A DNA stretch of 64,000 nt from Barthelona sp. PCE. Taxonomy: Eukaryota. The notes below the pieces were generated by a model. It saw only the letters and a program-made list of their open reading frames with translations. It ran no database searches and was not told the DNA's origin. Of the stretch, positions 1 to 35,600 are shown piece after piece. How positions within the stretch are numbered: position 1 is the first letter of the stretch; each line of letters starts with the position of its first letter. The translations under genes and the position numbers were made by a program. The DNA is taken from NCBI GenBank assembly GCA_040285745.1, contig JAUFOR010000005.1:682001-746000 (forward strand), read 5' to 3'.

Positions 1-3000
1 CGTAAATTGCGTTTCTGATGCGGTCGATGTCCAGCATATCATCAACAATAAACTCGACGTGCATATTATACAGAGAAGATGCATCGATTAACTTACAGAC
101 GAGCCACAGACGCTGCTGTGCGAATGAGAGCTCGTAAGAAGCCTTGTTGTGCTTCTCGAACGATGAAACTGAAGCACGATTCATTACAGAAGTCAGCGAA
201 CTGATGGACTGACTGAGAGTCTCCGGTGTCGGGTTGACAAAAATGTGACTCACCTTGATCTTTTGATTGAGCTCCTGTGAAAGGCGGGCAATTACCTGTG
301 TGGCCACAAGCGAGTGACCACCCAGATCGAAGAAACTATCGCGTATACCGACAGTGTCAACACCTAGTACCTCCTCAAAGACGCGACAGATAAGCTTCTC
401 GATCTCTGTCGTTGGTTCAACATAATTCGACACAGAAACAGTCTGAGCAACAGAAGGCTTTGGCAAGGTCTTGCGGTTAACTTTACCTGATGTTGTCTTG
501 TTAAAGTGTGATACAACAATATAGCGAGCAGGAACCATGGTGAGTGGCAGCTTCGTAAGCATAAACTGACGTATGTTCTGAACGTACTCGGTGTTATGCA
601 GAACAACCAACTCATCTGATTCGGTCAAGTGAGAATACTCATGCTCGCGGGGAACAACATACGCACACAGATAGTTATCTCCCGACTTATCCTTAACAAC
701 AGTGATTAAACCAGTTGATACTTCAGGATGAAGAAGTAAAGCACTGGCTATCTCACCAAGCTCCATACGAAGACCATGAATCTTGACCATGAAGTCAGTT
801 CGGCCCTTATAGTGGATGAGACCCTCGTTGTCATATCGACCAAGATCGCCTGACATATACACATACTCATTTCGTTCTTCAGTGAGTGCAAATGTTCCGA
901 AACTTTTCTTAGTAAGATCAGGACGCTTCCAGTATCCGCTTGCAACGGCGGCACCACCGGTGTATATCTCACCGACAGCACCCTTTGGTGCGAGGTAGCC
1001 GTTCTGTACAATCCAGCAAGTGTAGTTATCAAAGCAATATCCGCATGGAACATAGGTCTCTCCCGGTTTTGTTTCGTAATATGTGGTCTCAAGACAGCAC
1101 TCCGTTGCACCGTATGTATTTACCAGCTTCGCGTTGGGGAACTTCTCGTAGAACAGGTCACGCACGTATGTAGTCAACGGTTCTCCACTGAGGAACACGT
1201 AACGCAGACCCTGGTACTTCTCCGCATCAATGGCATCAAGGAAGGCCTTAAGCATACTGGGCACAAAGTAACAAAGAGTGACATTGTGCTGTTCAAACTC
1301 TTCAAATATCTCAACCGGTTCACGGTGAGCATTGGGTTGTGTCATATGGAGAACAGCGCCACACAAGAGTGGCACGATATACTCCCATACACTCGGGTCA
1401 AACGTCAACGTTGTCTTTAGAGCAATGACGTCCGCAGCGGAAGCTTTTGTGTACTCCAACTGCCAAATCATACGGTTCATAACGGCATCGTTTGTTGTTG
1501 GGATACCTTTTGGCGTACCAGTCGAACCTGAAGTGAACACAATGTAACAGCGATCGTCGAACGAAACTGTCCAATCGAAGCTCACCTTCTGATCTAAATA
1601 ATCGCTTGTGGACACTAAATCCACGTCCAACACGTGGCAACCGGACTCGCCAATGATGTCGGGTAAACGATCCCTCAAGATATCGTCGTCCACAATCAGC
1701 ACCGACATGTCAACATCTTTAACTAAGAAATTGATACGGTCGGTTGGGAAAGACGGCTCCATGGGAACATAGAGAGCACCTAGCTTGAAACATGCCAGAA
1801 TAGCAAACATCATCTCTGGTCTACGCAGAATGCAAATACCCACTGCATCACCCTTTGTCACATTGTGCTCTAAAAGGTATGCACACATTGCGTCTGTCTC
1901 GGCAAACAGCTCGCGGTACGACCATGAACTTTCTCCGAACGTCAGTGCGCAATCATCGAGATGCTGGTTACCATAAGAGAAAATGTGCTCGAATATTGTT
2001 AGTTCAGGACGGGCAATTGGTTTTGGATTCAGACCGTAGCGCAACTCATCGAGCTCTGCAGGTGTGATACACTGGATCTGCTTCAGCTTGGTGTAAACAT
2101 CAGTTGAAATCAGTCTCTCAAGCATGTATGCGAAATTGTTCGCAAAACGTTTGATAGTATCAAGTGTGAACAACTCTGTTGCGTACTCAAACTCAAAGCG
2201 CAGGCCCTCGCTCTCCTTATAGGCTAGCAGGGACAAATCAAACTTTGACGAAGTTGTTTCGTATCGGAGCTGGTGTACCTCACACTCACTGAGTACAAGC
2301 GATCCTGTGTCCATTGTTATCATGTTGAAGAATGATTGGAACAAAGGGTTTCTGTTAGCTGATCTCTTTATCTGAAGAGTATCAACCAAAATATCAATGG
2401 GAAGGCTCTGGTGGTCAAATACCTTAACAAATCCATCACGCATAGCCTCAACGAATCCTAGGAATGATCCTTCAGCGTCATAAGAGGAAAGAACAGGAAC
2501 TGAGTTTACGAACAGACCAATAACTGACTCCAAATCGCTGAGCATACGGTTAGCAACTGGAACACCAACAATGACGTCCTTTTGGTTCGAGTAACGGTGA
2601 AGCATGTAAGAAAATGCTGAAAGAAGCAGAACAAACAAAGAGCAGTTGCATGACATTGCCATAGACTCCAGTTCTGCAGTGATGGTAGGATTTAGAACAA
2701 GAGAGTACTCGCTTCCAGTCCATTCCAGCACTTCTTTGCGGGGGTAGTCGGTTGAAAGATCAAGAACTGTGGTGCTTGCCTCTCCCAAGTAGTTTTTAAA
2801 GAACTCCAACGAGGATCTAAACTCAAACTCCTCGCGTTCCCATACAGCATACTGTGGGTAATCAATGGTCGTCTGCTTGACGGGTTTAGCGTTGTAAATT
2901 GCGCTGAGCTCCTCAAAAAATATTGACATTGACCAGCCATCACCAGCAATATGGTGAATACAGAGCCAAAAGTATGCGGCCTTCTCAGTTTTGATAAGTT

Positions 3001-6000
3001 GAGCACGAATAGGTAGCTCCTTAGCAAGATCAAAGCCTGTAGCAGTAAATGTAACCCATTCAGATGCTAGTTCTGACTCTGCCACAGTACGTTGGACGAA
3101 TATTTCAGCAGGGATATCAGAAACTGGTTTGATGTAGGCTATAAGCTCTTCGTTCACCAGCTTATAAACTGTACGGAGAGCGCTATGTCTTGAAACAACA
3201 CTTCGGATTGCGGCACTGAGCTTCTCAGCATTAAGAGCACCAGTGATACGGAATCCAAACGGCATAAGATAGAGCTCACTGGACTCGATCAAGCTGTCTA
3301 ATATCCAGAGACGCTTCTGGGCAGCAGAAGGATAGAATCGCTGGTTAACCGAAATCGCTGACAAATCGGGCATTGAAACAAGTGAACTACGACGGATAGA
3401 TCCGGCTATATGAGCCACGGTTGGCTTATCAAAAAGCGCAGACAGACTTAGTGCAGTCTGGAATTTGCGCTGGATCTCACTTCGCAATTGAACATATAGC
3501 AGCGAGTGACCGCCCAATTCGTCAAAACGATCGTGTATACCAATTGGATAAGTGTTAAGGATCTTACCAAAGATAGAACATAGCTCAGTCTCAAGATGAT
3601 CACGCGGTGGTACAACATCACGGTTCGTGACAACACATGATGGGGCCGGCAACTTCTTACGGTCAACCTTACCACCCGGTGCAAGCGGCATGCGTTCCAA
3701 ATCAATGAGCATTTGAGGCACCATAAATGCTGGTAAACGTTCCTCCATGAACTTTAGTACAGATGCCTGACTATATGCCTCTCCGTGAGCGGGAATAACG
3801 TATCCAATGATCAAACCATCAACAACCATGGCGCATGAAGTACTAACAGCGGGATGCAAGGTCAAAAGGTTCTCAATCTCACCCATTTCAATACGGTGAC
3901 CACGGATCTTTACCTGGTAATCACGTCTACCAATGAACTCCACAAATCCGTCTTCGGAAAAGCGAGCCATATCACCTGTACAGTACATCTTACCGTGTGG
4001 TGCGACTTCAACATTGGTCAGCGATGTGTACATATCACTGACAAATGTCTTTGCTGAAAGTTCGGGTCTCTTGTGATATTCGTGTGCGACACCAACACCT
4101 CCGACATACAGTATACCTGTAGCACCGGCGGGAAGAACACGTTTGTACTGATCAAGTACAAAACACGTACCGTTCGTGATTGGGCGTCCAATAGGAACGG
4201 TTCGTGTGTTAAAGTCCTGTGAAACGTCAAAGTATGTCGCATACGAAGTTGATTCGGTGGGACCATAAAGGTTAACAAGACGCTTGGGGCTATACTGACT
4301 TGAAAGTAGTGTAAGCGCAACGTTCCTGTTCATCGCTTCACCACCTGTTGACACACACTCCAAATCACTGAAGATATGTGGGTAATCACGTACGTATCTG
4401 TTGAAGAGCGCGGTTGTGAGGAAAAGATGAGTGACTTCGAACTTTTCGATACACATTGCAAACAGATCTCCGTCAAGGACCTCGTTCTTCGTGATGACAG
4501 CGCAAGTTCCTCCATTAATTAATGGAGCCCAGATCTCAAACACGTGTGCGTCGAATGAAATCGTTGAGCACTGCGCCTGGACCATACTGCTGAAGCATGG
4601 AACCTGAGCATTCTCACAAACCATACGGAGGACACCTGACTGTGGTAAGACGCAACCCTTGGCGCGACCTGTTGAACCGGATGTATATATCATGTAGCAC
4701 GGCAGCATTTTGTCAGCATTGCTGTTTACCACCGCGCAATAGTCAGACATCGCATCACATGAGGCAAAACCATCAATGCACATCAGAGGACAGTCTGTCC
4801 ATTCGAATACATCCAAATGTTGGTTCTCAACAAACAGCATCTGCGGTAGTGCATCATCAATCATGAAGCGCAAACGTGACTCTGGATACGTGGGGTCAAG
4901 CGGAAGATAACAGCAGCCTGCACGGAGAATACCCGTCAGAACACAAATGAGAAGAGGGCTTCGAGACATGGATACACCAATAACTGCACCTTGTTCAACA
5001 CCTGCGTCAACCAAAACACCCGCGATGCGGTTGGAGTAGTGCCACAGATCACCATATGTGAGCGTGTGTGTTGATGAGGTGATGGCAACTTTTGCCTTAT
5101 TATGCGAGTCGATAATGTCACAGATGTTAACACCAAAGTCGACCGGTGCGTGTGACTGGTTGAAAGAAAGCAGCTCATCGTAGAACTGTGGCGGTGTGAA
5201 AGAGACGTGACTCATGTTTGTGGCGGAAGATAGTGTCTCAAGCGACTGAGCAATCTGTTCAACAACCTGGAACGTTGAAGTTACAAGGCACTCATCCACC
5301 TTTGCTCTTAAGTAAGAAATATCAAATTGGATACCATCTTCGATGTCAACTGCAATTGTGAACGGGAACTGGGTAACACCCTGTGGCGACTCACACGTAA
5401 ACAACGATGAATCTCCGGCTGATGCGTTTTCAAAGACATACAAAACATCGAACATTGATGGGAAGGACGTGATTGCCTGCAGTTCTGCAAGAGATATCTG
5501 AGAGTGGGCGCCAGCCATCACACTTTTGTGCTGAACTGCATTAACAAAGTCACTGAAACTCTGCTTCAGATTGGTGTTAATACAGATGGGCACAGTTGTA
5601 ATGAAGAGGCCGAGCGCCGAATCCAGATATTCAACCTCCAGATCACGACCGGAATATGTAACACCAAAGCACACAGAATCGGTGTTAGAAAGATAGCCAA
5701 ATGCGAGCATACAGATAGACTGAACAACTGCGTTGACTGAAACACCAAATGAACGGGCAGTCTTCAATATACTGTTAACGCTGCTCTTTGGAAGCGCGTG
5801 TTTGGCAAAGCCAACCGTTTGATCAACTGATGAGGTGTACTTGAATGGAAGCTCCGAATACTCAAATCCAGACAGTTCTTCGCGCCAGTACTGCAGGTTA
5901 CCCTCCTTAACTGATTCAAGTTTTCTAAAGTAGCTTCCGAAGTCAAACAGCGTTGGCTGAAGCGTCTTCCTGTGAAGTAAAGTGGTGATGCTGGTGAGCA

Positions 6001-9000
6001 ACAGCTCAATACTCCATGCGTCCAACAGCACGTGGTGGTTCACAATAACCAAACGCGATACTGCACCACCTGGAACAACTGCGAATCTGATAGGATCAGT
6101 TGCCAAAACACTGAGTCCTTCGGAGAGCACAGCGAAAGCCTCACTCACAGATGTAAAGTGTGGAACACTGTCAATACCCGTAGATGTGGTTACGACAACA
6201 CACCCTTCCTCAGTCTCATTAACAAACGAGCGGAGGAGTGGGTGGTGCTGGACTATCTCGATGATGCACTGATCCAACATAGCAGGTGCAACATCAATGC
6301 TCCAAACGTTCTGCTCAACATACGCGTTTGTATCAGAGCTACGCTTAAAATGATAGTACATTCCTGTTTGCATGTCTGTTAATGGCATTATGTTCTCAAC
6401 GTGGTGTGCGACAGTGATAGCATCGAGATCAGCCTTGGTGACAATCTTACCAAAATCTTGGGGCACAAATAGACTCTCGTCCAGGGTGAAAGGGAGCTTG
6501 CACTGCTCGAACTCATCAACCATAGATGGGTCACAAGATATTACAAGCACGATATCACCATTCAAAACACCAGCTTCGACGACAACGGAACCCATCAGCT
6601 GGTTTGAAGCAGCAACAGCTCCGTCATCCTTCAGGTCATCAAGGGAATCAATGACACCAATGAAATTAAAGACGACAGAGTTTGTGATGGATAGCAGCTC
6701 CTCATCAGTCATACATGCAAGAGCATCATGCATCGGGGCTGAATGAATGATTTCCTTGACAGACCTGATGTCTGCGTCGCGGACAATAGCAGGACGGAGA
6801 GCCGTGAACCAACCAACCGTATCAGAACAGTCGATTGGAAGCAAAACTCGACCCATTGATTCGAGCAATATGGGGAACTCCTCACGTTTGAATGAATTTG
6901 CAAACATACACACAGCAAGCTGTTCATTTGAAACACGATGGCGGTCGAAAAACTCTCTCGCTTCACTACCGATCTTAAATACCATGTCAACTGTAACACT
7001 CCCTCCAGTAGTTGTTGTGGGAGCATCAAATATGTTACAGACGCTGATAAACTGCTCCATGGAGCGACGCACTGAAGGAGATACAAGCTGTGATGTGTGC
7101 TCACTGAACTGTGGAAATACATTTCCGGCAGCCATGAGCTCGTCACCAGCAAGAACTGTCTCCAAATCAGAAACAATGAGAGCCCAACTGACAATGTCAA
7201 CTGCCATATGGTGCACAGCAATCAACAGCTCTCGACCGATGCAGCGTACCGCAAGGACGGGACCATTGAGTGACACAGACTGACACACCTCCTCAACTGA
7301 AGCATCCGACTCAAAGAATGCAAAGTCGATGAGATCGGTAATACCGTAGCTTCCATTATTGTAAACCAAACGGAGCATATCATGCTTCTTGATTAATGCG
7401 GTGATAGCCTTCTTAACCAGACCTGCCGAGTAGTCCTTTGACAGCTCGACTGTTTGATATTGACAGAAATGGCTGGGCTTGTCTAGATTCAATACATTGA
7501 AATAACGCTGAACAGGAGAAAGCTCTACACGATCCCTGCTCTGTACATTAATGATCTTACTCTTCTGCTTGATTGGTGTCAAACGCTTTGCCATTGTGCA
7601 TAAAATGGGAGCTTCAAATACCTCAGGAACGCTAAGTGAGAAACCATTCTTTCGAATGAGACTGATGAGCTTAATACTAATAATGGAGTCACCACCAATC
7701 TTAAAGAAGTTGTCATTAATGGAGATATCACTTTGTGACACTGAAAGCACTTCACTCCACAGCTCAACCAATAACTGTTCTTCTTGAGAAGTTGGAAGTT
7801 CAACGAGTGACTTCTTCCTTTCAACAGTCGGCTTGGGCAGACGTTTGCGGTTCACCTTTCCGTTCGGTAAAAGAGGGAATTCGGGAACCTCAACGTAATG
7901 AGAAGGATGCATATAATATGGCAACCTTCCATCCAGAGTAACTGAAATCCGGACGCGGTTGAGCACACCAAGACAATAGGCGACTAACACGGTTTCTTTG
8001 CCGATTTTAACAGGCATAACGATACATCGCTCAATACCAACGTCGCTTTCAATGACACGCTCGACTTCACCGAGCTCGATACGGTTGCCGCGGATCTTGA
8101 CCTGGTGGTCGATGCGGCCGAGGTACTCGACGTTCCCGTCTGCGCGCCAGCGCACGAGGTCGCCCGTCTTGTACAGGCGGCCCGCGGCGAACGGGTTCGG
8201 CACGAAGCGTGCGCGCGTGAGGTCGGGAGCGTTGTAGTAGCCGCGAGCGAGCGCGATGCCACCGATGTGCAGCTCACCCGGAACGCCAATGGGGCACAGC
8301 TGCATCGCCTTGTTCAGCACGAGTAGCTGGTTGTTGGCAACTGGTATGCCGATCGGCGGGTTGCTGCGCATGCCAGGCGTGCACTCGTACCACGATGAGT
8401 CGATCGTTGTCTCGGTGGGACCATACAGGTTAAGCAAGCGGCAGTCATCGACCTTCTCGAAGAACTGGTCGCACATGACGAGCGGCAGCGCCTCACCGGA
8501 CTGAACGACGATGCGGAGGGTGGGCAGCTTGACGCTGAGCACATCGAGGAACGCGCCGAGCATGCTTGCGACGAAGTGCATGATGGTGACGCGCCTCTCG
8601 TTGACGAAGTCGGCGATCTCCCACGGGTTATTCTGCGCGCCCGGCTTGAGCAGGTGAAGCTCTGCGCCGAGGACGAATGGAACGAACAGCTCCCAGACGG
8701 AGACGTCGAACGAGTACGGCGTCTTCTGGATGAAGCGGTCGTCGGCGGTGTACGTGAGGTCGCGCATCCACAGCAGGCGGTTGACGGCGCTGCGGTGCTC
8801 GATCGCGACGCCCTTCGGCGTGCCCGTCGACCCCGACGTGTAGATGATGTACATGATATCGCTAGAATCAGGCTTCCACTGAGTCAACTCCATCACGTTG
8901 TTGTTCTTGAAAACACTGCTTTCCATATCAACAACATAAGCATTTGTCCACATTGTGAGCTGCTCCTTACCACAAAGTACAAGATCGCATCTTGCGTGAT

Positions 9001-12000
9001 CCACGCAGAATTTGAGTCGGTCAATGGGATAGGCTGGATCCAACGGCAGATAAGCGGATCCTAGCTTGAGAATCGCCCAAAGCGAGACCATAAGCTCCAA
9101 TGAGCGCTCAAAACAAACACCAATAACAGAACCTTTATCGACCTGATCCATTAGATGAGTGGCAAGAACACTAGAGGCGTTGTCAAGTTCGGTATACGAT
9201 AAAACTGCACCAGTATGATCAACCAGTGCTGTTTTTGAAGGGTTTCTCTTGACAGATGCTAACATCAGGTCCAAAACTGTACCGCCGATATCATGCTCAG
9301 GCATTGGCAGTTCGCCAACAGCTATCAAATCCGATGCCTCGTCATCACTCAACAAAGGGTGTGACATGACACCAACGTCCATATCAACAACAATACCGTC
9401 AATAAAGCGGGTAAACTGTTCAAGCAACGTGACTGCCTTAGCATCACTGAATAATTCGGTTGAGTACTCCCAAACCAATTCCATTTCATCAGAAAGATGA
9501 CGGACATGAAGTGTAAGATCAACCTTCGCAACATCCAATGCAACGTCCTCGTAAGAGACCTTCGCGTCTCCAAGTTCAAGCACTGACTCCTTTCCGGGGA
9601 GGTAGTTGAACAATACCTTAAAGATTGGATTGCCTTTCATAGAACGATCGACATCCAAAAAATCAACAATGCGTTCAAAACATGTGCTGTTCCTCAACAT
9701 CTTGTCAACATTTTCAACTGTTACTTTGCAGAAATTACGGAAACTTAAGTTCTCTGCCATACTGCTGAATAAAGGCAGGGTGTTAACATAGTATCCGATT
9801 GCCTCCAGGTGTTGTCCTGCACGGTTCAGATGTGTGACACCAACAACAGCATCTTCAGAAGCAGAAACTCGATGAACGAATGATGCAAATGATGCAAGCA
9901 AAATATCAGACTCAGATACCTTTAGAACTTGAGACATACGCTCAATAGCTGCACATGTCTCAGTTGAGAGTCTTGTGCGGATAGAACGACCATCGTATGT
10001 TGGTTTTTCAGGTCTGTTGAAGTCAAAATTCAAATCCAAATCCATATTCTCAAATCCGTCCAGGATGGTCCAATAGTCGGTGACTGGGTGGTCAAAAACA
10101 TTAGGGCGCGGGGGCACCTCAACGGGCACCGCTCCTCCTCTGTAAAGAGTGTTGAAAGCTTCAACGAAAAGGTCGCAGGCAAAACCATCAATTGCAATAT
10201 GATGGAATGAGAAGCATATCTTCTCATTTGGCACAACTGCACAGCGAAATACACATTTCTTGAGATCAAAGGGTTCATTCAGGAAATCTTTTTCAGAAAG
10301 ATTCGAGTCAATGCGGAAATCAAGCTGAAGAACTTCGCACTGTGTGATCTCTCCATCCTTCAAATAGTATCCTGTTCTGAGTGCTACGTATGTCCTAAAC
10401 AGCTCCTGCACGGTCGCTCTTACACGATCTGCGTCGAACCCGCCCTCAACATTAAACACAAGCGGTAAATTATATAGTGATGATGTAGGCTCCAGTGAAT
10501 GGAGGAAATATAGTGATTTTTGACCGTCAGAAACAGCTGTTGTATCTATTGAGGCAACGCTCATCTCCTGTTTATCAGTAATAAGACTAGCAAGACGGGT
10601 TACAGTGTTACACACCTTCATTTCCTGAATCGAAACGGTAGCTCGGCTGGAAATCTTGCTAATAACACGGATAAACTGCATGGAATTACCGCCCAAGAAT
10701 TCAAAAGCATCATCACGAGATATTTTAGTCGCATCGATATTGAGCACTGAGGCAAAGACTGAGGCAACAAAAACCTCCATCTCGTCAACTGGTGGAACAA
10801 TAGCGCGGGTGACCGTTTCATATTTCATAGAGTTCAACAACTTTCGATCAATCTTACCTGAATTAGATAGTGGAATCTCACTCAGCAATACATACTCATC
10901 TGGTATCATATAATACGGTAAGCTCTGCTTCAGAAGAGTGGAAAGCTCTGTCACAACGTCAGCAGCCGCATAAGATACAAAGAAGCAAACGAGCTTCTTA
11001 TCACGGACTACAACAGCGCAAGCCTTTGTGATACCAACGGCGTTAACTGCCGCCTCGACCTCGGTGAGCTCAATACGGTGTCCTCTGATCTTGATTTGAT
11101 TGTCGTTTCGTCCCAAGAACAACAACTCGCCCTTCACGATCGAGGCAACATCACCAGTTCGGTAATAGCGCACACCATCTATGTTGACAAAACGTTGAGC
11201 TGTGAGTTCTGGCTGGTTTATGTAACCAGAAGCCAATCCACGTCCCGCAATTACCAACTCACCTGCCGTGAACTCAGGTGCAAACACTCCGTCCTTAAGA
11301 ATACGAACCGATGTGCCCGGGAATGGTACACCGATGGGAACAGCCTCGCCGCAACCGATCAGCTTATTCGAGTGGAAGTATGTTGAATCAATTGTAGCTT
11401 CAGTCAGTCCATAAGTGTTGAACAGACGTGCTGATGGGAAAAATTCGGAAAATTCAATATACTCAACACATGACCAGAAGTCAGAACCGCACATTATGAC
11501 TTTAAGATCATTGTCAGGCATGTTAACCGTTGAAAGAGTACGAAGAACAGTTGGTACAAACTCACATATATTAATGTGCAAGTCACATAATGTGCGTGTC
11601 AATTCGGTGCTATCCAATAACACATCACGATCGCAGATATGAAGAACACCGCCTGAACACAATGCACGAACGAAGTCACCCATTGCGACATCAAACGAGA
11701 AACTTGCCATTTGAAGATGGTTCCATCCTTTTTCCAGTCCAAATACTGACTCCCATCCAGTGTACGCGTTTAAATATGCGCTATGTGGGATGGAAGCACC
11801 CTTGGGCTTACCTGTAGAGCCAGATGTGAAGATGACGTAGGCTATGTCGCTTGCTTGGACTGAAGGTAAAGTGTTATCAACTGTAGCAGAGAGAATTGCT
11901 TGAAAATTGATGCAACGTGCGCTACATTCAATTTCGGAGTCGGTTAACACAAATTCGCACTGTGCTGTCTTCAACATGTGCTCAATACGGTCTGTTGGCA

Positions 12001-15000
12001 ACGTCAGATCAATCGGGAGCACTGCGCTACCAGCCGCAAGGATTGCCAACCAGCTGACAATTGCGTTTGCCGAACGGCCCATGGCTATACCAACTACTGC
12101 CCTGTGTGGCAAAGCAGTAGCAATAGCCTCAGCCTTGGTCCACAACTGCGCATACGTTAGCGTGCTCTTTCCGTCGCTAACAGCGATTGTATCGTTTCTC
12201 GGAATGAGATCAAGCACAGTTTTTCCCTGTGTTACAACAGCAGGTGCACTAAGGTAAGCACAATCTGCATTTTCAAATACACTGTTGGTGAAATCTCCAC
12301 CAATGACTGAATTAACCTTCAGCTTAAATAAATCAACCAAGACATTTAAAAATTCTGCTGAATAGACGGAAGAATCAAAGGTAAATTTGAAATCGACGCA
12401 TCTATCTCGAACAAAACCTTCAACAACGAGACCAATAAAGGCTTCAGTTGGTGAGTGCTCAACGGGAATAATGCCTTCCAATATTGATACGTAACTCTCT
12501 GATGCAAAGTCAAACATAATTGATGGCAGTTCGTCAGAGAAAAGAGTTGAATACTCCACACCTGCGTTAAGTGCTGCAGAGCGGATGCTGTCATACACCT
12601 GCTTGGCCTGAATAACAAAATTGTCTGATTTTAAGACTGTAAGAGCAGAGGTATTAACAAAATTACCAAACATATCATCATAAGCTGTTGCTGGTGATAC
12701 CAATCTTGCATCCACGGGGATGGCAAAAGTTGCCGCACTGTTTGAGGAAACAAAACCGAGGACATCACCAAAACATGCAGCAAAGATGGAATACACGGAA
12801 AGCCCGTGGTCGTGACAAAGCTTGCGTGCTGAGTCAACAATAGGGCCAAAGGAGAAGCTAATTTCACGCGATGTACTCTCCTTATCGTAGGAAACAATGG
12901 ACTTACCGGGTACGAAGGAAGGCATCTCTACTGAATCAAACTGTGATACAAAATCGCCTTTCGGAACAGAAAGAGATTGTATGAAAGGTGCTGTGTCAAT
13001 AACTCGGACTGTACCACCTGTCAGAGCTTCCTCCAATGATCTGGAGAACAAGTCAATTGAATAGCCATCGAACACCAGATGGTGCGCAGCAAAAACGACA
13101 TCTGTCTGCAGAACAATACACTTGTAACAACATTCCGTTGTGTTAAACACATTATTTTGCAGTAAAGAAATGCATTCTTCTAACTCAATATCAGCAGGAT
13201 AGACAGCCGTGTCATCAAAAGATTGTCTGACCAACAGATTTCCATCATCATCCATGTCGAATACACTGGTCAAAACATGAGTGCAATGGACGACATGTCT
13301 GAAGGCGTTGACAAGCTCTTCCTGTGAGTAACCACGCCCTGCAAAGTCGTATGAAATAACAACATTATATCCTGTTGATGAGAATTTTGAGTTCTGATAC
13401 ATTTGTTTGAGGGCTATACTATCGACAGGAACCCACTGCACACCTGTAGCTGGGGCCTTTGTAGCGAATGCGCCAGTATCTACGGTTGGATCGCTGACGA
13501 TAAGATTAGCAATAGCGAGTGGTGTCTGGTGTTCAAACACATCAGCAACCGTAATGCTGCAATGCAAATCCCTGTTAAGCGCTGCGACGAACCGGGCTGC
13601 ATTCAATGAATGACCACCCACAAGTGTGAACCTGCTTGAAAACGAGCACGGGGCACCAACAATCTTCGACATGATCGTCTTAACGGTCATGGCAACGGCT
13701 GGATTGGAAACATCAGACAGATCCACGTCCTCCTCTACGATTACTGGGAGAGGAAGACTGTTGCGATCAACCTTGCCTGAACCGGGTAAAAGCGGAAACG
13801 CAGACACTATCTCAATGAGAGGTGGAACCATGTATGACGGGAGTTGCTTCTCCATGAACTCCGGGAGTGTGCCCGGGTCAACATCTCCAATTACGTAGCC
13901 GACCAAAACAGGCTCAGCAAAAACGTCACGGCGCAGAACGACGACTGCTTGTCTCACTGATGGATGGTCGAGCATAACAGCTTCAACCTCGTGAAGATGG
14001 ATACGGACACCGCGGACCTTCACTTGGAAGTCACGACGACCCTTATAAAAAATGGTATCATTCTTCAGCTCGCACAAATCACCAGTTTCATATGAATACC
14101 AGCCTGGCATCGCTGTGTATGGCATGAACCTTTGCTGCAGCTCATCGGATAAGTATGGTGAAGAAATGTACTGGGTGGACACACCTAGGCCGTTGGCGAT
14201 TAGTTCGCCCTCAGGTGTAATGGTGACGTCTGTGTTGTACAGAGGTAATCCAATAGGCATGAAGTCAAACACAGTGTCCTTGGGAACAGTGTAGTACGTG
14301 ACGTTGGCAGACACCTCAGATGCACCATACAAGTTGACCAGGGTCGTGTGACCCCACTTCGAGTAATACTTCTTGGTCAGCGCACCTGTTAGTGCCTCAC
14401 CGGACGTGTAAACCAGCCGCAGAGGAGGAACTTGATCAACCTTCAACAACTCGTTGAGCAGAGAAGGAACAGCGACAAGACGCGTGATTTTGTATTTGCA
14501 AATAATCTTGACAAACTCCATAGGGTTCGTCATCGTCTCTGCACTAATGATGACAAGAGGGTTTCCGTTAAGCAATGGGCAGAAAATCTCCCACCAATGA
14601 TCGCCAAACGACAACGCAGTCTTTGAGCAGCAGACTTCGTCACGGGCGAGCGGATACTCAACGTTCAAAAAATTTATCAGGTTCACAGCTCCCTTGTGAG
14701 AGCCAACTACACCCTTTGGGCGTGAGACTCCACTGGCACTTGACGTCGAACCACTTGTGTATACGACATACATACCCATATCCCCTGAGTATGCATTGTC
14801 GGGCACGTCAACCGGTCTCGGTGTGAAGTTTTTAATGCGTTCATAGAACCCTGTAATGGAAATTGATGGAGCTGACCATACTGACTTGTCAAGAGTAATA
14901 ACTACATCAGGACCTGCGTTCTCCACTATCCAGTTGAGCCTGGATGCTGGGAGGTTTGGCTCCAGCGGCAAGTAGGTCTTCCCCATCTTCATAACTGCTA

Positions 15001-15253
15001 ATAATAATGGGATTGCAAGTTGATGATCACGTTTAATATTGAGACCAACAATTCCCGACCCAAATTCAAGCCCGCTACTCATCATGTAGTGAACAAGACG
15101 ATTTGACATTTCTTCAACCTCCATGAAGGTTTGAAATGTCCCATCTGCTTGATAAATGGCAATATGTTCAGGGCATTGCGATGATATGGAGTACCACCAC
15201 GGAACTATATGTTCGTACGGTAGATCCACGCGAATGCCATTCAAAATATCCAT
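1..15253 (-). CDS. Multimodular nonribosomal peptide synthetase, 3'-partial (at least 5084 aa; A-T-C-A-T-C-A-T-E-C-A-T-C-A-T-C...)
   Basis: Manual translation from ATG 15253 (MDILNGIRVDLPYEHIVPWW...). All five carrier-protein Ser codons (13607-9, 10682-4, 7685-7, 3503-5, 311-3) and the terminal LSFAQQRLW...YN segment are in one frame. The ORF track lists no closed ORF in this frame, consistent with no stop before the window edge. Five A domains (TSGST..PKG, GxxE, [TS]GD, GRxD, GK motifs), four complete HHxxxD C domains plus the start of a fifth, one E domain. Confidence 0.97.
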   Translation of the reverse strand, partial: MDILNGIRVDLPYEHIVPWWYSISSQCPEHIAIYQADGTFQTFMEVEEMSNRLVHYMMSSGLEFGSGIVGLNIKRDHQLAIPLLLAVMKMGKTYLPLEPNLPASRLNWIVENAGPDVVITLDKSVWSAPSISITGFYERIKNFTPRPVDVPDNAYSGDMGMYVVYTSGSTSSASGVSRPKGVVGSHKGAVNLINFLNVEYPLARDEVCCSKTALSFGDHWWEIFCPLLNGNPLVIISAETMTNPMEFVKIICKYKITRLVAVPSLLNELLKVDQVPPLRLVYTSGEALTGALTKKYYSKWGHTTLVNLYGASEVSANVTYYTVPKDTVFDFMPIGLPLYNTDVTITPEGELIANGLGVSTQYISSPYLSDELQQRFMPYTAMPGWYSYETGDLCELKNDTIFYKGRRDFQVKVRGVRIHLHEVEAVMLDHPSVRQAVVVLRRDVFAEPVLVGYVIGDVDPGTLPEFMEKQLPSYMVPPLIEIVSAFPLLPGSGKVDRNSLPLPVIVEEDVDLSDVSNPAVAMTVKTIMSKIVGAPCSFSSRFTLVGGHSLNAARFVAALNRDLHCSITVADVFEHQTPLAIANLIVSDPTVDTGAFATKAPATGVQWVPVDSIALKQMYQNSKFSSTGYNVVISYDFAGRGYSQEELVNAFRHVVHCTHVLTSVFDMDDDGNLLVRQSFDDTAVYPADIELEECISLLQNNVFNTTECCYKCIVLQTDVVFAAHHLVFDGYSIDLFSRSLEEALTGGTVRVIDTAPFIQSLSVPKGDFVSQFDSVEMPSFVPGKSIVSYDKESTSREISFSFGPIVDSARKLCHDHGLSVYSIFAACFGDVLGFVSSNSAATFAIPVDARLVSPATAYDDMFGNFVNTSALTVLKSDNFVIQAKQVYDSIRSAALNAGVEYSTLFSDELPSIMFDFASESYVSILEGIIPVEHSPTEAFIGLVVEGFVRDRCVDFKFTFDSSVYSAEFLNVLVDLFKLKVNSVIGGDFTNSVFENADCAYLSAPAVVTQGKTVLDLIPRNDTIAVSDGKSTLTYAQLWTKAEAIATALPHRAVVGIAMGRSANAIVSWLAILAAGSAVLPIDLTLPTDRIEHMLKTAQCEFVLTDSEIECSARCINFQAILSATVDNTLPSVQASDIAYVIFTSGSTGKPKGASIPHSAYLNAYTGWESVFGLEKGWNHLQMASFSFDVAMGDFVRALCSGGVLHICDRDVLLDSTELTRTLCDLHINICEFVPTVLRTLSTVNMPDNDLKVIMCGSDFWSCVEYIEFSEFFPSARLFNTYGLTEATIDSTYFHSNKLIGCGEAVPIGVPFPGTSVRILKDGVFAPEFTAGELVIAGRGLASGYINQPELTAQRFVNIDGVRYYRTGDVASIVKGELLFLGRNDNQIKIRGHRIELTEVEAAVNAVGITKACAVVVRDKKLVCFFVSYAAADVVTELSTLLKQSLPYYMIPDEYVLLSEIPLSNSGKIDRKLLNSMKYETVTRAIVPPVDEMEVFVASVFASVLNIDATKISRDDAFEFLGGNSMQFIRVISKISSRATVSIQEMKVCNTVTRLASLITDKQEMSVASIDTTAVSDGQKSLYFLHSLEPTSSLYNLPLVFNVEGGFDADRVRATVQELFRTYVALRTGYYLKDGEITQCEVLQLDFRIDSNLSEKDFLNEPFDLKKCVFRCAVVPNEKICFSFHHIAIDGFACDLFVEAFNTLYRGGAVPVEVPPRPNVFDHPVTDYWTILDGFENMDLDLNFDFNRPEKPTYDGRSIRTRLSTETCAAIERMSQVLKVSESDILLASFASFVHRVSASEDAVVGVTHLNRAGQHLEAIGYYVNTLPLFSSMAENLSFRNFCKVTVENVDKMLRNSTCFERIVDFLDVDRSMKGNPIFKVLFNYLPGKESVLELGDAKVSYEDVALDVAKVDLTLHVRHLSDEMELVWEYSTELFSDAKAVTLLEQFTRFIDGIVVDMDVGVMSHPLLSDDEASDLIAVGELPMPEHDIGGTVLDLMLASVKRNPSKTALVDHTGAVLSYTELDNASSVLATHLMDQVDKGSVIGVCFERSLELMVSLWAILKLGSAYLPLDPAYPIDRLKFCVDHARCDLVLCGKEQLTMWTNAYVVDMESSVFKNNNVMELTQWKPDSSDIMYIIYTSGSTGTPKGVAIEHRSAVNRLLWMRDLTYTADDRFIQKTPYSFDVSVWELFVPFVLGAELHLLKPGAQNNPWEIADFVNERRVTIMHFVASMLGAFLDVLSVKLPTLRIVVQSGEALPLVMCDQFFEKVDDCRLLNLYGPTETTIDSSWYECTPGMRSNPPIGIPVANNQLLVLNKAMQLCPIGVPGELHIGGIALARGYYNAPDLTRARFVPNPFAAGRLYKTGDLVRWRADGNVEYLGRIDHQVKIRGNRIELGEVERVIESDVGIERCIVMPVKIGKETVLVAYCLGVLNRVRISVTLDGRLPYYMHPSHYVEVPEFPLLPNGKVNRKRLPKPTVERKKSLVELPTSQEEQLLVELWSEVLSVSQSDISINDNFFKIGGDSIISIKLISLIRKNGFSLSVPEVFEAPILCTMAKRLTPIKQKSKIINVQSRDRVELSPVQRYFNVLNLDKPSHFCQYQTVELSKDYSAGLVKKAITALIKKHDMLRLVYNNGSYGITDLIDFAFFESDASVEEVCQSVSLNGPVLAVRCIGRELLIAVHHMAVDIVSWALIVSDLETVLAGDELMAAGNVFPQFSEHTSQLVSPSVRRSMEQFISVCNIFDAPTTTTGGSVTVDMVFKIGSEAREFFDRHRVSNEQLAVCMFANSFKREEFPILLESMGRVLLPIDCSDTVGWFTALRPAIVRDADIRSVKEIIHSAPMHDALACMTDEELLSITNSVVFNFIGVIDSLDDLKDDGAVAASNQLMGSVVVEAGVLNGDIVLVISCDPSMVDEFEQCKLPFTLDESLFVPQDFGKIVTKADLDAITVAHHVENIMPLTDMQTGMYYHFKRSSDTNAYVEQNVWSIDVAPAMLDQCIIEIVQHHPLLRSFVNETEEGCVVVTTSTGIDSVPHFTSVSEAFAVLSEGLSVLATDPIRFAVVPGGAVSRLVIVNHHVLLDAWSIELLLTSITTLLHRKTLQPTLFDFGSYFRKLESVKEGNLQYWREELSGFEYSELPFKYTSSVDQTVGFAKHALPKSSVNSILKTARSFGVSVNAVVQSICMLAFGYLSNTDSVCFGVTYSGRDLEVEYLDSALGLFITTVPICINTNLKQSFSDFVNAVQHKSVMAGAHSQISLAELQAITSFPSMFDVLYVFENASAGDSSLFTCESPQGVTQFPFTIAVDIEDGIQFDISYLRAKVDECLVTSTFQVVEQIAQSLETLSSATNMSHVSFTPPQFYDELLSFNQSHAPVDFGVNICDIIDSHNKAKVAITSSTHTLTYGDLWHYSNRIAGVLVDAGVEQGAVIGVSMSRSPLLICVLTGILRAGCCYLPLDPTYPESRLRFMIDDALPQMLFVENQHLDVFEWTDCPLMCIDGFASCDAMSDYCAVVNSNADKMLPCYMIYTSGSTGRAKGCVLPQSGVLRMVCENAQVPCFSSMVQAQCSTISFDAHVFEIWAPLINGGTCAVITKNEVLDGDLFAMCIEKFEVTHLFLTTALFNRYVRDYPHIFSDLECVSTGGEAMNRNVALTLLSSQYSPKRLVNLYGPTESTSYATYFDVSQDFNTRTVPIGRPITNGTCFVLDQYKRVLPAGATGILYVGGVGVAHEYHKRPELSAKTFVSDMYTSLTNVEVAPHGKMYCTGDMARFSEDGFVEFIGRRDYQVKIRGHRIEMGEIENLLTLHPAVSTSCAMVVDGLIIGYVIPAHGEAYSQASVLKFMEERLPAFMVPQMLIDLERMPLAPGGKVDRKKLPAPSCVVTNRDVVPPRDHLETELCSIFGKILNTYPIGIHDRFDELGGHSLLYVQLRSEIQRKFQTALSLSALFDKPTVAHIAGSIRRSSLVSMPDLSAISVNQRFYPSAAQKRLWILDSLIESSELYLMPFGFRITGALNAEKLSAAIRSVVSRHSALRTVYKLVNEELIAYIKPVSDIPAEIFVQRTVAESELASEWVTFTATGFDLAKELPIRAQLIKTEKAAYFWLCIHHIAGDGWSMSIFFEELSAIYNAKPVKQTTIDYPQYAVWEREEFEFRSSLEFFKNYLGEASTTVLDLSTDYPRKEVLEWTGSEYSLVLNPTITAELESMAMSCNCSLFVLLLSAFSYMLHRYSNQKDVIVGVPVANRMLSDLESVIGLFVNSVPVLSSYDAEGSFLGFVEAMRDGFVKVFDHQSLPIDILVDTLQIKRSANRNPLFQSFFNMITMDTGSLVLSECEVHQLRYETTSSKFDLSLLAYKESEGLRFEFEYATELFTLDTIKRFANNFAYMLERLISTDVYTKLKQIQCITPAELDELRYGLNPKPIARPELTIFEHIFSYGNQHLDDCALTFGESSWSYRELFAETDAMCAYLLEHNVTKGDAVGICILRRPEMMFAILACFKLGALYVPMEPSFPTDRINFLVKDVDMSVLIVDDDILRDRLPDIIGESGCHVLDVDLVSTSDYLDQKVSFDWTVSFDDRCYIVFTSGSTGTPKGIPTTNDAVMNRMIWQLEYTKASAADVIALKTTLTFDPSVWEYIVPLLCGAVLHMTQPNAHREPVEIFEEFEQHNVTLCYFVPSMLKAFLDAIDAEKYQGLRYVFLSGEPLTTYVRDLFYEKFPNAKLVNTYGATECCLETTYYETKPGETYVPCGYCFDNYTCWIVQNGYLAPKGAVGEIYTGGAAVASGYWKRPDLTKKSFGTFALTEERNEYVYMSGDLGRYDNEGLIHYKGRTDFMVKIHGLRMELGEIASALLLHPEVSTGLITVVKDKSGDNYLCAYVVPREHEYSHLTESDELVVLHNTEYVQNIRQFMLTKLPLTMVPARYIVVSHFNKTTSGKVNRKTLPKPSVAQTVSVSNYVEPTTEIEKLICRVFEEVLGVDTVGIRDSFFDLGGHSLVATQVIARLSQELNQKIKVSHIFVNPTPETLSQSISSLTSVMNRASVSSFEKHNKASYELSFAQQRLWLVCKLIDASSLYNMHVEFIVDDMLDIDRIRNAIY
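200..3350 (-). other. NRPS module 5: LCL-type C-A5-T5
   Basis: C SAAQKRLW, HSALRT, HHIAGDGWS; A5 FTSGSTGTPKG, TFDPSVWE, CYFVPSML, FLSGEP, NTYGATECCLET; T5 FFDLGGHSL. A sixth module's C domain begins at ~135 (LSFAQQRLW). Confidence 0.9.
3400..6420 (-). other. NRPS module 4: DCL-type C-A4-T4 (aliphatic amino acid-like A domain)
   Basis: C PLTDMQTGMYYH, YVEQ, HHVLLDAWS, YSGR..GLFITTVP; A4 YTSGSTGRAKG, SFDAHVFEIWAPLING, LFLTTALFN, TGGEA, NLYGPTESTSYAT; T4 LGGHSL. Confidence 0.9.
6480..10545 (-). other. NRPS module 3: C-A3-T3-E (Ser-like A domain plus epimerization domain)
   Basis: C HHIAIDG (~10185-10205); A3 KTPYSFDVSVWE, MHFVAS, QSGEAL, NLYGPTETTIDS; T3 FFKIGGDSI; E LSPVQRYF, HDMLR, HHMAVDIVSW, LESMGR, TVGWFT, FNFIG. 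Confidence 0.9.
10570..13450 (-). other. NRPS module 2: C-A2-T2 (A2 Orn/Dab-like)
   Basis: C motif HHLVFDG (~13064-13084); A2 FTSGSTGKPKG, SFDVAMGDF, CEFVP, IMCGSD, NTYGLTEATIDS; T2 LGGNSM. Confidence 0.9.
13500..15253 (-). other. NRPS module 1: initiation A1-T1 (beta-amino-acid/Ebony-like A domain)
   Basis: YTSGSTSSASGVSRPKG, KTALSFGDHWWEIFCPLLNG, ITRLVAVPSLL, YTSGEAL, NLYGASEVSANVT, PGSGKVDR; T1 motif VGGHSL. No N-terminal C domain. Boundaries approximate. Confidence 0.9.
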
Positions 15254-15707
15254 ATCAATGCTGTGCAAATGGTTGTAAAAAAGGAGTAAAATTATAAACA
15301 ACTGACATAAGCGTTTGTTAGGTTTTTCTTGTGAATAGTGATTTAATAGATGTGCTAGTGTTAAATTTGCCAAACACAAATACTGAGTATGAGTGCAAGA
15401 TGATTCTATTAATGGGCAGGGTTAATTTGATCAATTCCACATATATGAGAAACTTTTCATTCGTTTGTAAGGATAGTGATATAATATTCATGTTCAAAAT
15501 GAGGTATAAATATTGCTAAACAGACTATATACATATTAATGATTATATCTTGTTCTTCACTTTAATATGGGTTTTAAAACCCGTGAGTTCGCTCAAACGA
15601 ATAACCATACTCACATAGACACCATAAATGTCGAATGATCTCCCATGCTACAGTGCTTTGAAAAGCTTTTTTTCACTTCTTGCAGTGTATTAGACTAATT
15701 TAGTATA

Positions 15708-32694: not shown

Positions 32695-35600
32695 ATGGTT
32701 AGAGCATTTAAAACCGAAGACGGACATGCTTATGTGAAGTGGGTTGATGAAAAACAGATCGTAGATGTGGTATTATCTGATGAACCTTACACCGGTGTAT
32801 CTTGGACATCTAAGGATGAGCGAGTTTTGGCCACGGTGCACACTGGTCACATCAGCGTGTTCAGTATTCCGTCATTGGAGGAAATTTACGCCGTACCTAC
32901 CAATTCAAAGGTTATGTATGGTTGTTTGAGTTTTGACGGACAAGTTCTGGCATTCAGGGTCGGTGATGACTACCATGTACATTGCATAAGCTCGCAAAGT
33001 TTAATCTCGAATGTTACTTTTACAAAAGGAAGCAATTGCTGGGTCAATTCTGAGGCTATCTTTGTTCAAGAGAGTGTTAACCATGTGCACAAGTTTATTC
33101 ATGGTTCAAGCGAGGCAGCCATGAAGTTTGATGGTCTTTTTGCTGTTGAGCAGAGTGATGGAGAAATGTTTTTTTTGGAAAGTTATTTCACTGGAGAAGC
33201 AAAGAAATACAAGTTCAGATTCAGAGATTGTGGAAATAATGTTTTATTTGAGAGAAATCATAACAGACATGTAGTTCTAATTTCAGCAGACATTTCATCG
33301 AATTATCTGATGTTTAGTGAGTCAGGTAGGACAATGGTGTATAACCGATCAACATTAGCTACGGTGTGGGCAAAAAACATAAAAAAAATTGAAGCAGTGT
33401 ACATTTCACCAGATGAAGAGCACTTCACAGTTGTTAGAAGTTCTGGAATTGGGTATATTTATAATGTTCAAAACGAATTAGTTGCCTCCGTTCCATCGCA
33501 TTGCACAGGACCAACTGTTTCGTATGATATTGTTGAAGATTATTTAATTAAGGCTAACACTCCACTTGGCTCGTTCTTTTGTTGTGGATCATTCAGTATT
33601 TGTGAAGAAAACTACTTTGTCAAAAAGGTTAAAAATGGCTGTCTTTGTTTTTTTTCATCGAGAATTGCTTACATATCTGAGGTGAACTACATTACTAAGA
33701 AACATGACCCTCACAACGGAATTATTGTCAATGTCACAAAAGATGCTGACTCAGTGTTCCATGTTGAATTGGATGATGGCACGTTTATGCTTGTTGAGTG
33801 GACCAAAGATGATGGGTTTGGCCGTATTTTGAAGTGCAACAGTGATAGAAACAACTATGGTAACGCTATAGATATTGAGATTAGTGAATTGTACTCCAGA
33901 ATCATTGAACAGAAGTTGGAATCAAAGTTTGAAAGGCAGAAGTCAGAGATGGAAGTTAAGTTGCAGAAGCAGAAAAAGGATATGGACACGAAGTTCCAGG
34001 TAACTTTTGATATACTGAGTCAGCTGGTACCCAATTCGGGTAACAGTGAGTACAGTGCGCTGACGGAGCATGTTAACGACTGTGCTGCCGCCGTTCGTCA
34101 GCTTGAGATGCCACCCAACTCATTTTTTGATTTATTATCTTCTAACCCTAGTGTGAATACGTTGGAACAGCATATGAATGAACTAGAGCAGGCTATTAAC
34201 TTCATTAATTCACTGAAAAACATCATTTTAGATTTTGAGTTAGAAGATACCTTATCCATCACTTTCAGCTCCAAGTTTTCGGATTTGGTAGCACAGTTTC
34301 GCATTGCTAAGTTGCTGAACGAGTATTCCTACGCTGCTAAACTTACAGAACTGCAGAGTTTGGATGTTTACTTCAAGGTTTTCGATAAGTATGACAAGCT
34401 TCACTTGGCTGAGGTGCACTCAGCGCTCATACATTTCAGCGACAAGAGTAAGGCTTTGGATGACATCGTTGAACAGATCAAACACATCACACAGCGCGTT
34501 AAGGAGTTCAAGGAAGCACAAAACGCGCAGGATGAAGTAGATGTCACCATCGATTTCGATCAACTGTATTCGCTTCAAGACCAGCTGGATCGTCATCATT
34601 CGGATATCAACGGGTATACACGTGCTCATTTCGTGGATACCAAGGCTCATCTGCTTGATGTAATTGAGTCAAACGCTATACAATTGAAAGATACAATTTG
34701 TGAGTTTTCTCTCGCCGTCAACCTCAACAGCACACTGGTGGAGCTGCAACTGTCTTCAATCAGGTTTCCCTCTGTTCCAAAGATCATCAGTTACGATAAC
34801 TATCTAAACGGCGATCTGGAGGAAATTGGATTGCATAACGACACGTTGGTAAGGGATGATCTGTTCATCAAGTGTATATGTGTCTCCGAAAGGTTTAGGG
34901 GCGACAGAGACATGAATCTTAAAGCACTGCGAAGGGAGCTACGTGTTCTGACAAAGCTTCACCCATGTGTCGTATCACTCAAGAATGTCGTACTTGTGCC
35001 TGAAATGAAAAGGGGCTCCACAACTGTCAAATTCGTATGTTTAGAGCTTGAACGCGCACCCTACGATCTTGAGCAGTTTTTGAGCGCATTCCCCGATCTT
35101 GATATTTCGACGAGGAACAGTTTGGCTCACCAGCTAGTAATGTCTGTGTTCATGATGCACGCCAGCGGTATTATTTTGAGGGATCTCAAACCGCAGAACG
35201 TTCTTGTTTTCTGCAACGAGGATGGATCCAATCCCAAACTCAAATTGTGCGACTTTGGTGTCAGTGTCTCCATCAACCAAACTATGGGTGGCCAAACTAT
35301 GGTTGGAACATTTGGTTACATGGCCCCTGAAGTGTTTAATGGACAACCCCACACCTTCCTGAGTGAAATCTTCTCGCTTGGAAAAACTGTTGCATTTATT
35401 TTTGCGCAGGACAGAAGCAACATTGCCAATTTGGGTTTGCCGAATAACTGCACACACTCTGAAATTATCCAGCGCTGCCAAGCTCAGGATCCTCAGCTGA
35501 GACCGTCCATTTACGAGCTCAGCTGCTATGAGTGGCGCGCAAACGCACCGGTAGCGCAGGACCGCATCACACTCATCCGACGCCAGATCAACCAGTTCAT

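Follow-up and report, generated by a model that had tools for sequence, protein, structure and literature searches.

Exchange of the core subdomain (Acore) of adenylation (A) domains is thought to be the main route by which bacteria change single residues of non-ribosomal peptides, and it is normally inferred by comparing related gene clusters. Here we describe a GC-rich patch in the third A domain of a non-ribosomal peptide synthetase (NRPS) gene of the eukaryote Barthelona sp. PCE. The gene lies in a stretch of 64,000 nucleotides (contig JAUFOR010000005.1 of assembly GCA_040285745.1, positions 682,001 to 746,000), referred to below as the window, within which all positions are numbered. The preferred reading of the patch is a natural swap of the Acore, a kind of event known from bacteria, found here in a eukaryotic NRPS gene.

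Natural recombination in bacterial NRPSs, as described in PMC8097286 (Baunach et al. 2021, Mol Biol Evol), keeps the linker between condensation (C) and A domains, the Asub subdomain and the interface between Asub and the carrier (T) domain. In the same account, the core motifs A1–A10 may serve as recombination points, and near-full Acore substitutions are described as common, with A8 as the hinge. As in those swaps, the patch lies inside the A domain and most of the Acore, including the binding pocket, appears exchanged. Unlike them, it is found in a eukaryotic nuclear host, its presumed donor and recipient are 0.44 apart in GC content at third codon positions (GC3), and the swap is read from composition and divergence, not from a comparison of congeners.

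Calcott et al. (2020, Nat Commun, PMC7486941) describe an upstream A-domain breakpoint hotspot between A2 and A4 in NRPSs of Pseudomonas, Bacillus and Streptomyces, and the 5' junction of the patch, just before A3, falls in line with it. The downstream hotspot in that study starts near A5 and the 3' junction of the patch is at A8, hence a larger unit. Engineered A-subdomain swaps quoted there (K205-A322 and T221-I352 in GrsA numbering; Crusemann 2013; Kries 2015) resemble the patch in replacing the specificity pocket and keeping the remainder of the module; the unit described here, approximately GrsA 186-442, encloses both and adds the P-loop and motifs A6–A8. In the literature listings searched, we found no account of a eukaryotic NRPS with an A-core swap marked by its composition.

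A sharply bounded GC3-rich patch

The NRPS gene sits on the minus strand in an open reading frame (ORF) of 5126 codons (2..15379), open at the left end of the window, and Pfam searches of ORF tiles gave the domain order A-T-C-A-T-C-A-T-C-C-A-T-C-A-T. The first-pass annotation had drawn attention to a GC-rich stretch covering motifs A3 to A8 of the third A domain. The stretch is real, the proposed coordinates (8055-8855) were right to within about 15 bases, and the four counts of G and C made by hand in its support (44/60, 44/60, 23/60 and 21/60) were exact. Its GC content is 0.637, compared with a mean of 0.422 (standard deviation (sd) 0.043) and a maximum of 0.545 in the other 786-nucleotide windows of the 64 kilobases (kb). 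Windows of 200 nucleotides gave 0.59–0.70 over 8001-8900 and 0.38–0.48 immediately outside. The sliding-window GC3 profile, suggested at the same time as a check, revealed a discrete step, with 0.77–1.00 in 30-codon windows inside the patch and 0.30–0.60 beside it, the shifts at first and second codon positions (GC1 and GC2) being small.

The patch was delimited by a codon-usage log-likelihood scan, in which each codon was scored by its usage in the patch versus its usage in 12 neighbouring ORFs. The scan returned 8072-8857 with 153 nats, and the runner-up segment of the ORF reached 9.3. So bounded, the patch has a GC content of 0.636 and a GC3 of 0.89, versus 0.45 for the remainder of the ORF. 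A Bernoulli two-change-point fit on GC3 gave 8072-8911 (0.879 inside, 0.426 outside); the 20 upstream codons that this simpler fit adds (FKNNNVMELTQWKPDSSD) are host-like, including TTG, ACT, CCT, GAT, TCT and GAT. The interval of two-unit likelihood support for the 3' junction is 8060-8090, and both edges are sharp to about 10 codons. No repeats or mobile-element marks flank the patch; two chance direct repeats and zero inverted repeats were found. The reading frame is intact and the motifs are canonical.

The patch opens with 58 consecutive codons ending in G or C, and 29 of its 262 codons end in A or T. The latter make up 17/90 codons at 8258-8527 and 12/172 elsewhere, a heterogeneity that was not significant (scan statistic, p = 0.07). 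Arginine is encoded by CGC (16/18), glycine by GGC (14/20), glutamate by GAG (13/13), lysine by AAG (10/10) and isoleucine by ATC (15/17); leucine uses CTC 14 times and CTG 11 times, valine GTC 14 times and GTG 4-5 times, threonine ACG 9 times and ACC 4 times, and proline CCG 10 times and CCC 4 times. NCG codons account for 54% of NCN codons in the patch versus 3–22% in the 18 other ORFs or ORF parts listed. The codons preferred by the host are GGT, CGT/AGA and NCA/NCT. Without the patch, the NRPS ORF has a GC3 of 0.452, versus 0.448 in the 12 neighbouring eukaryote-type ORFs, and the per-codon fractions are alike. Because the rest of the NRPS gene shares its codon usage with its neighbours, and the NCG share of NCN codons differs, the patch does not represent the host's own biased usage.

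Placement in the third adenylation domain

A domain 3 was recognised by PF00501 (254.9 bits, cut-off 29.9; ORF residues 2042-2382), and together with the ordered core motifs this identifies it as an NRPS adenylation domain of the ANL superfamily (AMP-binding). A pattern search found the motifs TSGSTGTPKG, NLYGPTE, YKTGD, KIRGNRI and PLLPNGKV (A3, A5, A7, A8 and A10). As the first-pass annotation had stated, the edges coincide with conserved A-domain motifs: the 5' edge lies directly upstream of IMYIIYTSGSTGTPKG (motif A3), and the 3' edge falls within A8. In a PDB search, patch residues 2-261 aligned to residues 186-442 of GrsA (1amu_A), so the patch corresponds to almost all of the Acore subdomain from its P-loop on. 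Host codon usage is seen in both flanks of the domain and in the T domain, and the C domain is also outside the patch. Set beside the exchanges described in PMC8097286, the patch falls within the Acore with the C-A linker, Asub and the Asub-T interface all native, and its breakpoints are found at core motifs, with 8846-8866 abutting A3 and 8060-8090 inside A8.

By its motif positions, the patch would hold nine of the ten positions of the specificity code. The pocket presumably reads D-V-W-H-V-S-L-I-D at these positions, with the tenth residue, K, coming from native A10. The best single-domain PDB matches of the core of A domain 3 were Txo2, Txo1, FscH and EntF, and EntF activates serine. Judged from these matches and the pocket, module 3 would now most likely activate a serine-like substrate. 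Separately, the core of A domain 5 (758-1549) had FscH, Txo2, Txo1 and EntF as its best single-domain PDB matches (163–177 bits), as for the patch, and with 43% identity is the core in this gene most like the patch; the two modules may therefore take related substrates.

A step in protein divergence between core and flanks

A panel of 953 A domains from 240 bacterial NRPS proteins and 41 bacterial loci was aligned with the five A domains of the gene. The mean identity of A domain 3 to the panel was 33.6% in the N-terminal flank, 45.0% in the core and 32.9% in the C-terminal flank; for the other four A domains the corresponding values were 26.8–32.7%, 33.4–39.6% and 36.3–41.3%. Bacterial pairs with 40–45% core identity had flanks at 41.3% and 49.9%. 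The 20 panel domains closest to the core of A domain 3 averaged 56.9% identity in the core and 33.9% and 32.3% in the flanks, and bacterial pairs with 53–57% core identity (n = 1734) had flanks at 43.6 ± 6.8% and 50.3 ± 7.3%. Identity corrected for column conservation was calculated with the 719 bacterial domains from the module-3 search only, to lessen selection bias. Observed minus expected identity was -1.2 points for the core of A domain 3, -10.2 for its N-terminal flank and -18.9 for its C-terminal flank, and -6.8 to -11.4 points for the other four cores. By these sequence comparisons, the core of A domain 3 is as close to bacterial A domains as a typical bacterial domain, its flanks being diverged like the other modules, and the protein encoded by the patch is about as close to bacterial A domains as these are to each other.

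An interaction test was carried out on the columns common to all five domains (196 in the core and 145 in the flanks, with 10,000 bootstraps). A domain 3 exceeded the mean of the other four by 7.9 points in the core and by 1.4 points in the flanks, a core-by-flank interaction of +6.5 points (95% confidence interval 0.9–12.1), and 1.2% of the bootstraps gave values ≤ 0. The same statistic was -4.9, 0.4, -0.1 and -1.8 for A domains 1, 2, 4 and 5. The core-sized window that maximises the advantage of A domain 3 starts at column 84, the true start being column 81.

A second panel comprised eight single-A-domain PDB chains chosen independently of the patch (Txo2, Txo1, FscH, EntF, GrsA, 5u89, TycA and McyB). 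Against these, the core of A domain 3 scored 196–257 bits and the other four cores 95–177 bits where listed. For Txo2 the score was 257 bits versus 116–175 for the other cores, for EntF 239 versus 96–163, for GrsA 202 versus 95–138, and for TycA 199 versus 102–143. Maximum-likelihood trees were built from 75 rows, consisting of the five A domains and a subset of 70 domains from the panel of 953, in which 15 were those closest to the core of A domain 3 and 55 were taken at random. In the core tree, the terminal branch of A domain 3 was 0.52, versus 1.12–1.65 for the other four, where the panel branches have a median of 0.34 and reach 0.87 at the 95th percentile; its branch in the flank tree was 1.38, the others having 1.05–1.48. 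Quick trees placed the core of A domain 3 with three bacterial domains (Shimodaira-Hasegawa-like approximate likelihood ratio test (SH-aLRT) 98) and its flanks with A domains 1, 4 and 5 (SH-aLRT 92). A change-point fit to the protein alignment put the C-terminal boundary at residue 399, in agreement with the expected 397. The protein evidence thus points, at moderate significance, to a step in the amount of divergence placed at the codon step, with the branching order not resolved.

Searches for a source of the patch

Several collections were searched for a donor. A word-indexed protein search with the patch, covering proteins of 491–2000 amino acids, gave E ≤ 1e-20 for 7999 of the 8000 candidates scored, with 45–55% identity among the 120 listed. 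With module 3 as query and proteins of 2796–8897 amino acids, all 1184 candidates had E ≤ 1e-30; the 120 listed were 27–35% identical, and the window's own NRPS protein was not among them. Six 8-residue patterns, with which a donor below about 80% identity could be missed, were scanned against the genomes of 185,579 bacterial and archaeal species and returned 80 matched stretches, 41 of them relatives, the best at 54%. By blastn, 618 of 72,556 plasmid records had a match; in 14 the match spanned 80% or more of the query, and identity was 64–66% in the 12 listed. An exhaustive search of representative proteins yielded 148,148 hits, the top 150 being NRPSs of 4.5–7.9 thousand residues with 4–8 A domains and 36–49% identity over all stretches; among the 144 newly added proteins in this set, the best single domain was 53.9% identical. 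The best matches were taxonomically scattered (Rhodococcus, Streptomyces, Thermoanaerobaculia, a Roseivirga metagenome-assembled genome and Paenibacillus). Within the 64-kb window, no near-identical copy of the patch was found: blastn returned the patch itself and motif-sized matches of ≤48 nucleotides, and the five A cores are mutually 28–43% identical. The near-identical serine modules that had been proposed as a source for gene conversion are thus not present in the window.

Composition was then compared with bacterial A cores. The patch has a GC1 of 0.61 and a GC2 of 0.41, with fractions of 0.28 for the amino acids GARP and 0.25 for FYMINK. For a GC3 of 0.88, the corresponding predictions from 39 bacterial A cores are 0.69, 0.50, 0.355 and 0.156, with a residual sd of about 0.03. 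The host itself avoids CGG: the NRPS gene outside the patch has 47 CGC and 3 CGG codons, and other genes have 78 and 26. By full synonymous usage, the best-fitting loci were from Thermoanaerobaculia/Acidobacteriota and Rhodococcus; by the choice between C and G in G/C-ending codons, two Acidobacteriota loci fitted best and a tract in a kinase gene of the window came third of 45 models. The dinucleotide distance of the patch was 75–112 to several bacterial loci, within the noise of 88 ± 39, and 163–189 to the host. Codon likelihoods and dinucleotide signatures are not decisive between a bacterial and an in-genome source.

The kinase gene is a WD40-kinase-IBR ORF, and its tail carries a second GC3-rich tract, detected by the codon log-likelihood ratio (LLR) scan in two pieces, 35503-36060 (GC3 0.75, LLR 25.9) and 36424-36618 (GC3 0.82, LLR 21.7); other ORFs reached at most 10.7. 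GC1 and GC2 are unchanged in the tract, and its codon choices resemble those of the patch (CGC 10 and CGG 0, CTC more frequent than CTG, CCG 5 and CCC 0). Unlike the NRPS patch, it is patchy, with a GC3 of 0.6–0.78 and graded edges. The tract may reflect a process of GC enrichment, or a region rich in GC, within this genome.

Origin of the patch

A single recombination event probably replaced most of the Acore of A domain 3 by a segment of a GC3-rich NRPS gene. The first-pass annotation had suggested, as one of two possibilities, a recent A-core swap from a high-GC donor. The swap is supported by the discrete in-frame unit from A3 to A8 and by the steps in both codon usage and protein divergence; recent transfer from a high-GC bacterium is not. 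In the proposed event, a double crossover or a gene-conversion-like copy would have overwritten the sequence from just before A3 to A8 with the homologous stretch of another NRPS gene. The resident gene would be an old, codon-adapted NRPS gene of bacterial type in a eukaryotic nuclear genome, and the incoming piece would be of more recent bacterial ancestry, its synonymous sites having barely drifted toward host usage. The exchanged unit would have brought the P-loop, the binding pocket and the catalytic motifs A3–A7, and the chimera would have been retained because it is functional.

Several results weigh against this reading. No close donor was found in any of the collections searched, the best matches having 54–60% protein identity and 64–66% DNA identity, and in the exhaustive protein search, which ranks by score summed across many A domains, a close single domain could be missed. 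The patch lies about 2.5–3 sd off bacterial A cores of equal GC3, and CGG makes up 0/16 of its CGC and CGG codons versus 22–70% in the 18 bacterial loci listed. The kinase tract, being in the same window, suggests that the genome may produce GC3-rich DNA itself. The protein-level interaction is only moderately significant, and the protein change-point fit placed the N-terminal boundary at domain residue 48, not 137. In approximately unbiased (AU) tests, the core alignment did not reject a clade of A domains 1, 3, 4 and 5 (p-AU 0.543), nor did the flank alignment reject a grouping of A domain 3 with the three bacterial domains closest to its core (p-AU 0.567); each of the two constrained trees outperformed its quick free counterpart. 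Topological incongruence between core and flanks is therefore not claimed, as neither data set rejects the other's grouping. In the comparison of patch and flank trees suggested at first pass, the level of divergence was discordant (branch 0.52 versus 1.38), and the topology tests rejected nothing. Finally, homology at the junctions is limited to the motifs, and for partners about 40% identical a double crossover guided by homology would be mechanistically awkward.

As for the donor, direct uptake of a bacterial DNA fragment comes somewhat short of an even chance. A tentative alternative is an intermediate elsewhere in the same genome, either an NRPS paralogue or a region that is GC3-rich; here a more recently acquired NRPS gene, residing in or shaped by a GC3-rich part of the genome, would then have given its core. 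Given the amino-acid make-up of the patch, its lack of CGG and the kinase tract, a high-GC bacterium and a GC3-rich region of this genome are equally possible sources. For a recent transfer from a high-GC bacterium, neither a close relative nor a matching composition was found: with the best matches at about 65% in DNA, and the amino-acid make-up and absence of CGG fitting poorly, this earlier proposal is drawn from composition only. It is doubtful that the substrate-selecting core of a long-domesticated nuclear NRPS gene was overwritten directly by a fragment of less than 1 kb from a bacterium, be it prey or an associate.

The patch could also have arisen in place, through GC-biased gene conversion or another AT-to-GC drive in which the core was not replaced and a hotspot of about 0.8 kb pushed its synonymous sites to G and C; we regard this as unlikely. 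GC-biased gene conversion tracts occur at eukaryotic recombination hotspots, 786 bp is of a size typical of a conversion tract, and the patch resembles such tracts as a kilobase-scale rise of synonymous GC in an AT-richer gene. The kinase tract, with its similar codon choices and unchanged GC1 and GC2, speaks for such a process, as do the hardly shifted GC1, GC2 and amino-acid make-up of the patch and its avoidance of CGG, a host trait. However, conversion in place does not account for the greater closeness of the patch protein to bacterial A domains, compared with its own flanks and the four sister cores, since such conversion is expected to add divergence, not to reduce it. Enrichment from AT to GC is present in the patch, but graded edges and unchanged protein relationships are not: its edges are sharp to a few codons and lie on the domain motifs A3 and A8, where protein divergence steps too, whereas the kinase tract is patchy and gradual. 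An NCG share of NCN codons of 0.54 and a GTC to GTG ratio of 14 to 4-5 also depart from the host's choice between C and G.

An assembly or polishing chimera, in which GC-rich bacterial NRPS sequence from a contaminant or symbiont was spliced into the eukaryotic contig, is very unlikely. The content of the patch is bacterial-like, and the conserved motifs at both edges could let an assembler switch templates, but a chimera would require the assembly to leave one gene and re-enter it in frame, by two switches at homologous positions separated by 786 bp. The bacterial domains closest to the core share only about 33% protein identity with the flanks, so bacterial reads would not map or overlap beyond the motifs. 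The window is without any N, the contig that carries the neighbouring GPN-loop GTPase gene is 766,953 bases long, and the CGG-free usage and amino-acid make-up of the patch fit none of the 41 bacterial loci well.

Least probable of these readings is that nothing was replaced and that the core of A domain 3 is simply the most conserved part of the gene, with a codon bias from selection on translation or mRNA: Pfam A-domain scores do differ less than the comparison of cores would suggest (254.9 for A domain 3, 238.9 for A domain 5 and 220.1 for A domain 4), but the patch codons (CGC, GGC, NCG) are not those preferred by the host, and no other segment of the 5126-codon ORF exceeds 10 nats despite four further A cores with the same motifs.

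The NRPS gene and its genomic setting

The window is eukaryotic, not bacterial. Its genes include those for a BEACH protein with FYVE and ConA-like lectin domains, a Cse1/CAS/importin-beta protein, FAM91 and a GPN-loop GTPase (GPN1), and further neighbours encode a type III glutamine synthetase, RING, WD40 and protein kinase domains and teneurin-type EGF repeats. Intergenic GC is 0.28–0.39. In a search of the protein collection, the best non-self relatives of the GPN-loop GTPase, from plants, a sponge and protists, were 42–52% identical; because none exceeded about 52%, the lineage is taken to be deep and poorly sampled. The neighbouring genes at 17204-63960 are densely packed on both strands, with long uninterrupted ORFs, and 8 of the 14 neighbouring ORFs scanned had no Pfam family at E ≤ 1e-4.

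Other parts of the NRPS gene have peculiarities of their own. The P-loop of A domain 1 (around 14720-14773) bears an insertion, reading TSGSTSSASGVSRPKG instead of TSGSTGxPKG, and this domain is the most diverged of the five (PF00501 148.7 bits, core branch 1.65); judged by its sequence, its role may be other than normal amino-acid activation. Downstream of the carrier domain of module 3, at 5252-7534, are two condensation-like regions. The first has a weak N-terminal match (residues 2616-2674) and HHMAVD at residue 2723, and the second a fuller match (residues 2995-3376) and HHVLLD at residue 3115; the pair could be an epimerisation-type domain, or a degenerate domain followed by a C domain. 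The condensation domain of module 2 (12536-12868) matches only positions 226-336 of the PF00668 profile at about 45 bits, a much poorer match than those of the C domains in modules 3 and 5. Coordinates of the features are collected in Table 1.

Table 1. Positions of the patch, the surrounding domains and other features in the window.
Feature	Position	Strand	Basis and remarks
GC3-rich patch in A domain 3	8072..8857	minus	Codon-usage LLR; 786 bases, 262 codons, ORF codons 2174-2436
5' junction	8846..8866	minus	Two-unit likelihood support; just upstream of the motif A3 run ...IMYIIYTSGSTG
A3 core motif TSGSTGTPKG (P-loop)	8810..8839	minus	Motif search; patch-type codons
A8 motif KIRGNRIELGEVE	8060..8098	minus	Motif search; 3' junction inside, at the Acore/Asub hinge
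Native N-terminal part of A domain 3	8858..9262	minus	A1-A2 region after the C-A linker; host codons, strongly diverged protein
Native C-terminal part of A domain 3	7790..8071	minus	Asub, A9-A10 including PLLPNGKV; host codons, strongly diverged protein
Condensation domain, module 3	9326..10546	minus	PF00668 on tiles; ORF residues 1612-2018
Carrier (PP-binding) domain, module 3	7607..7774	minus	PF00550; ORF residues 2536-2591
NRPS gene	2..15253	minus	At least 5 modules, open at the window's left end; no stop or frameshift; host-like codons outside the patch
GC3-rich tract, tail of WD40-kinase-IBR ORF 32695..36873	35503-36618	plus	Codon LLR scan
ORFs without Pfam family	29450-31543, 37241-39001, 39148-40065, 42668-44092, 45996-48149, 52744-53484, 53741-54802, 62707-63960		E ≤ 1e-4

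Implications

The unameliorated codons of the patch mark both breakpoints to within about 10 codons, in a pair of partners only about 35–45% identical, and point to two natural and presumably tolerated fusion sites, just before the P-loop of motif A3 and inside the A8 hinge. The kinase tract raises the question of whether this little-sampled lineage has a GC-enriching process of its own. If the donor was bacterial, the patch would represent transfer of a gene fragment, not of a whole gene, into a eukaryote. Direct overwriting, if true, would be horizontal transfer below the level of the gene, with a cassette diversifying a eukaryote's peptide, seen before codon amelioration. Read as an Acore swap, the patch would extend this mode of NRPS evolution to eukaryotes.

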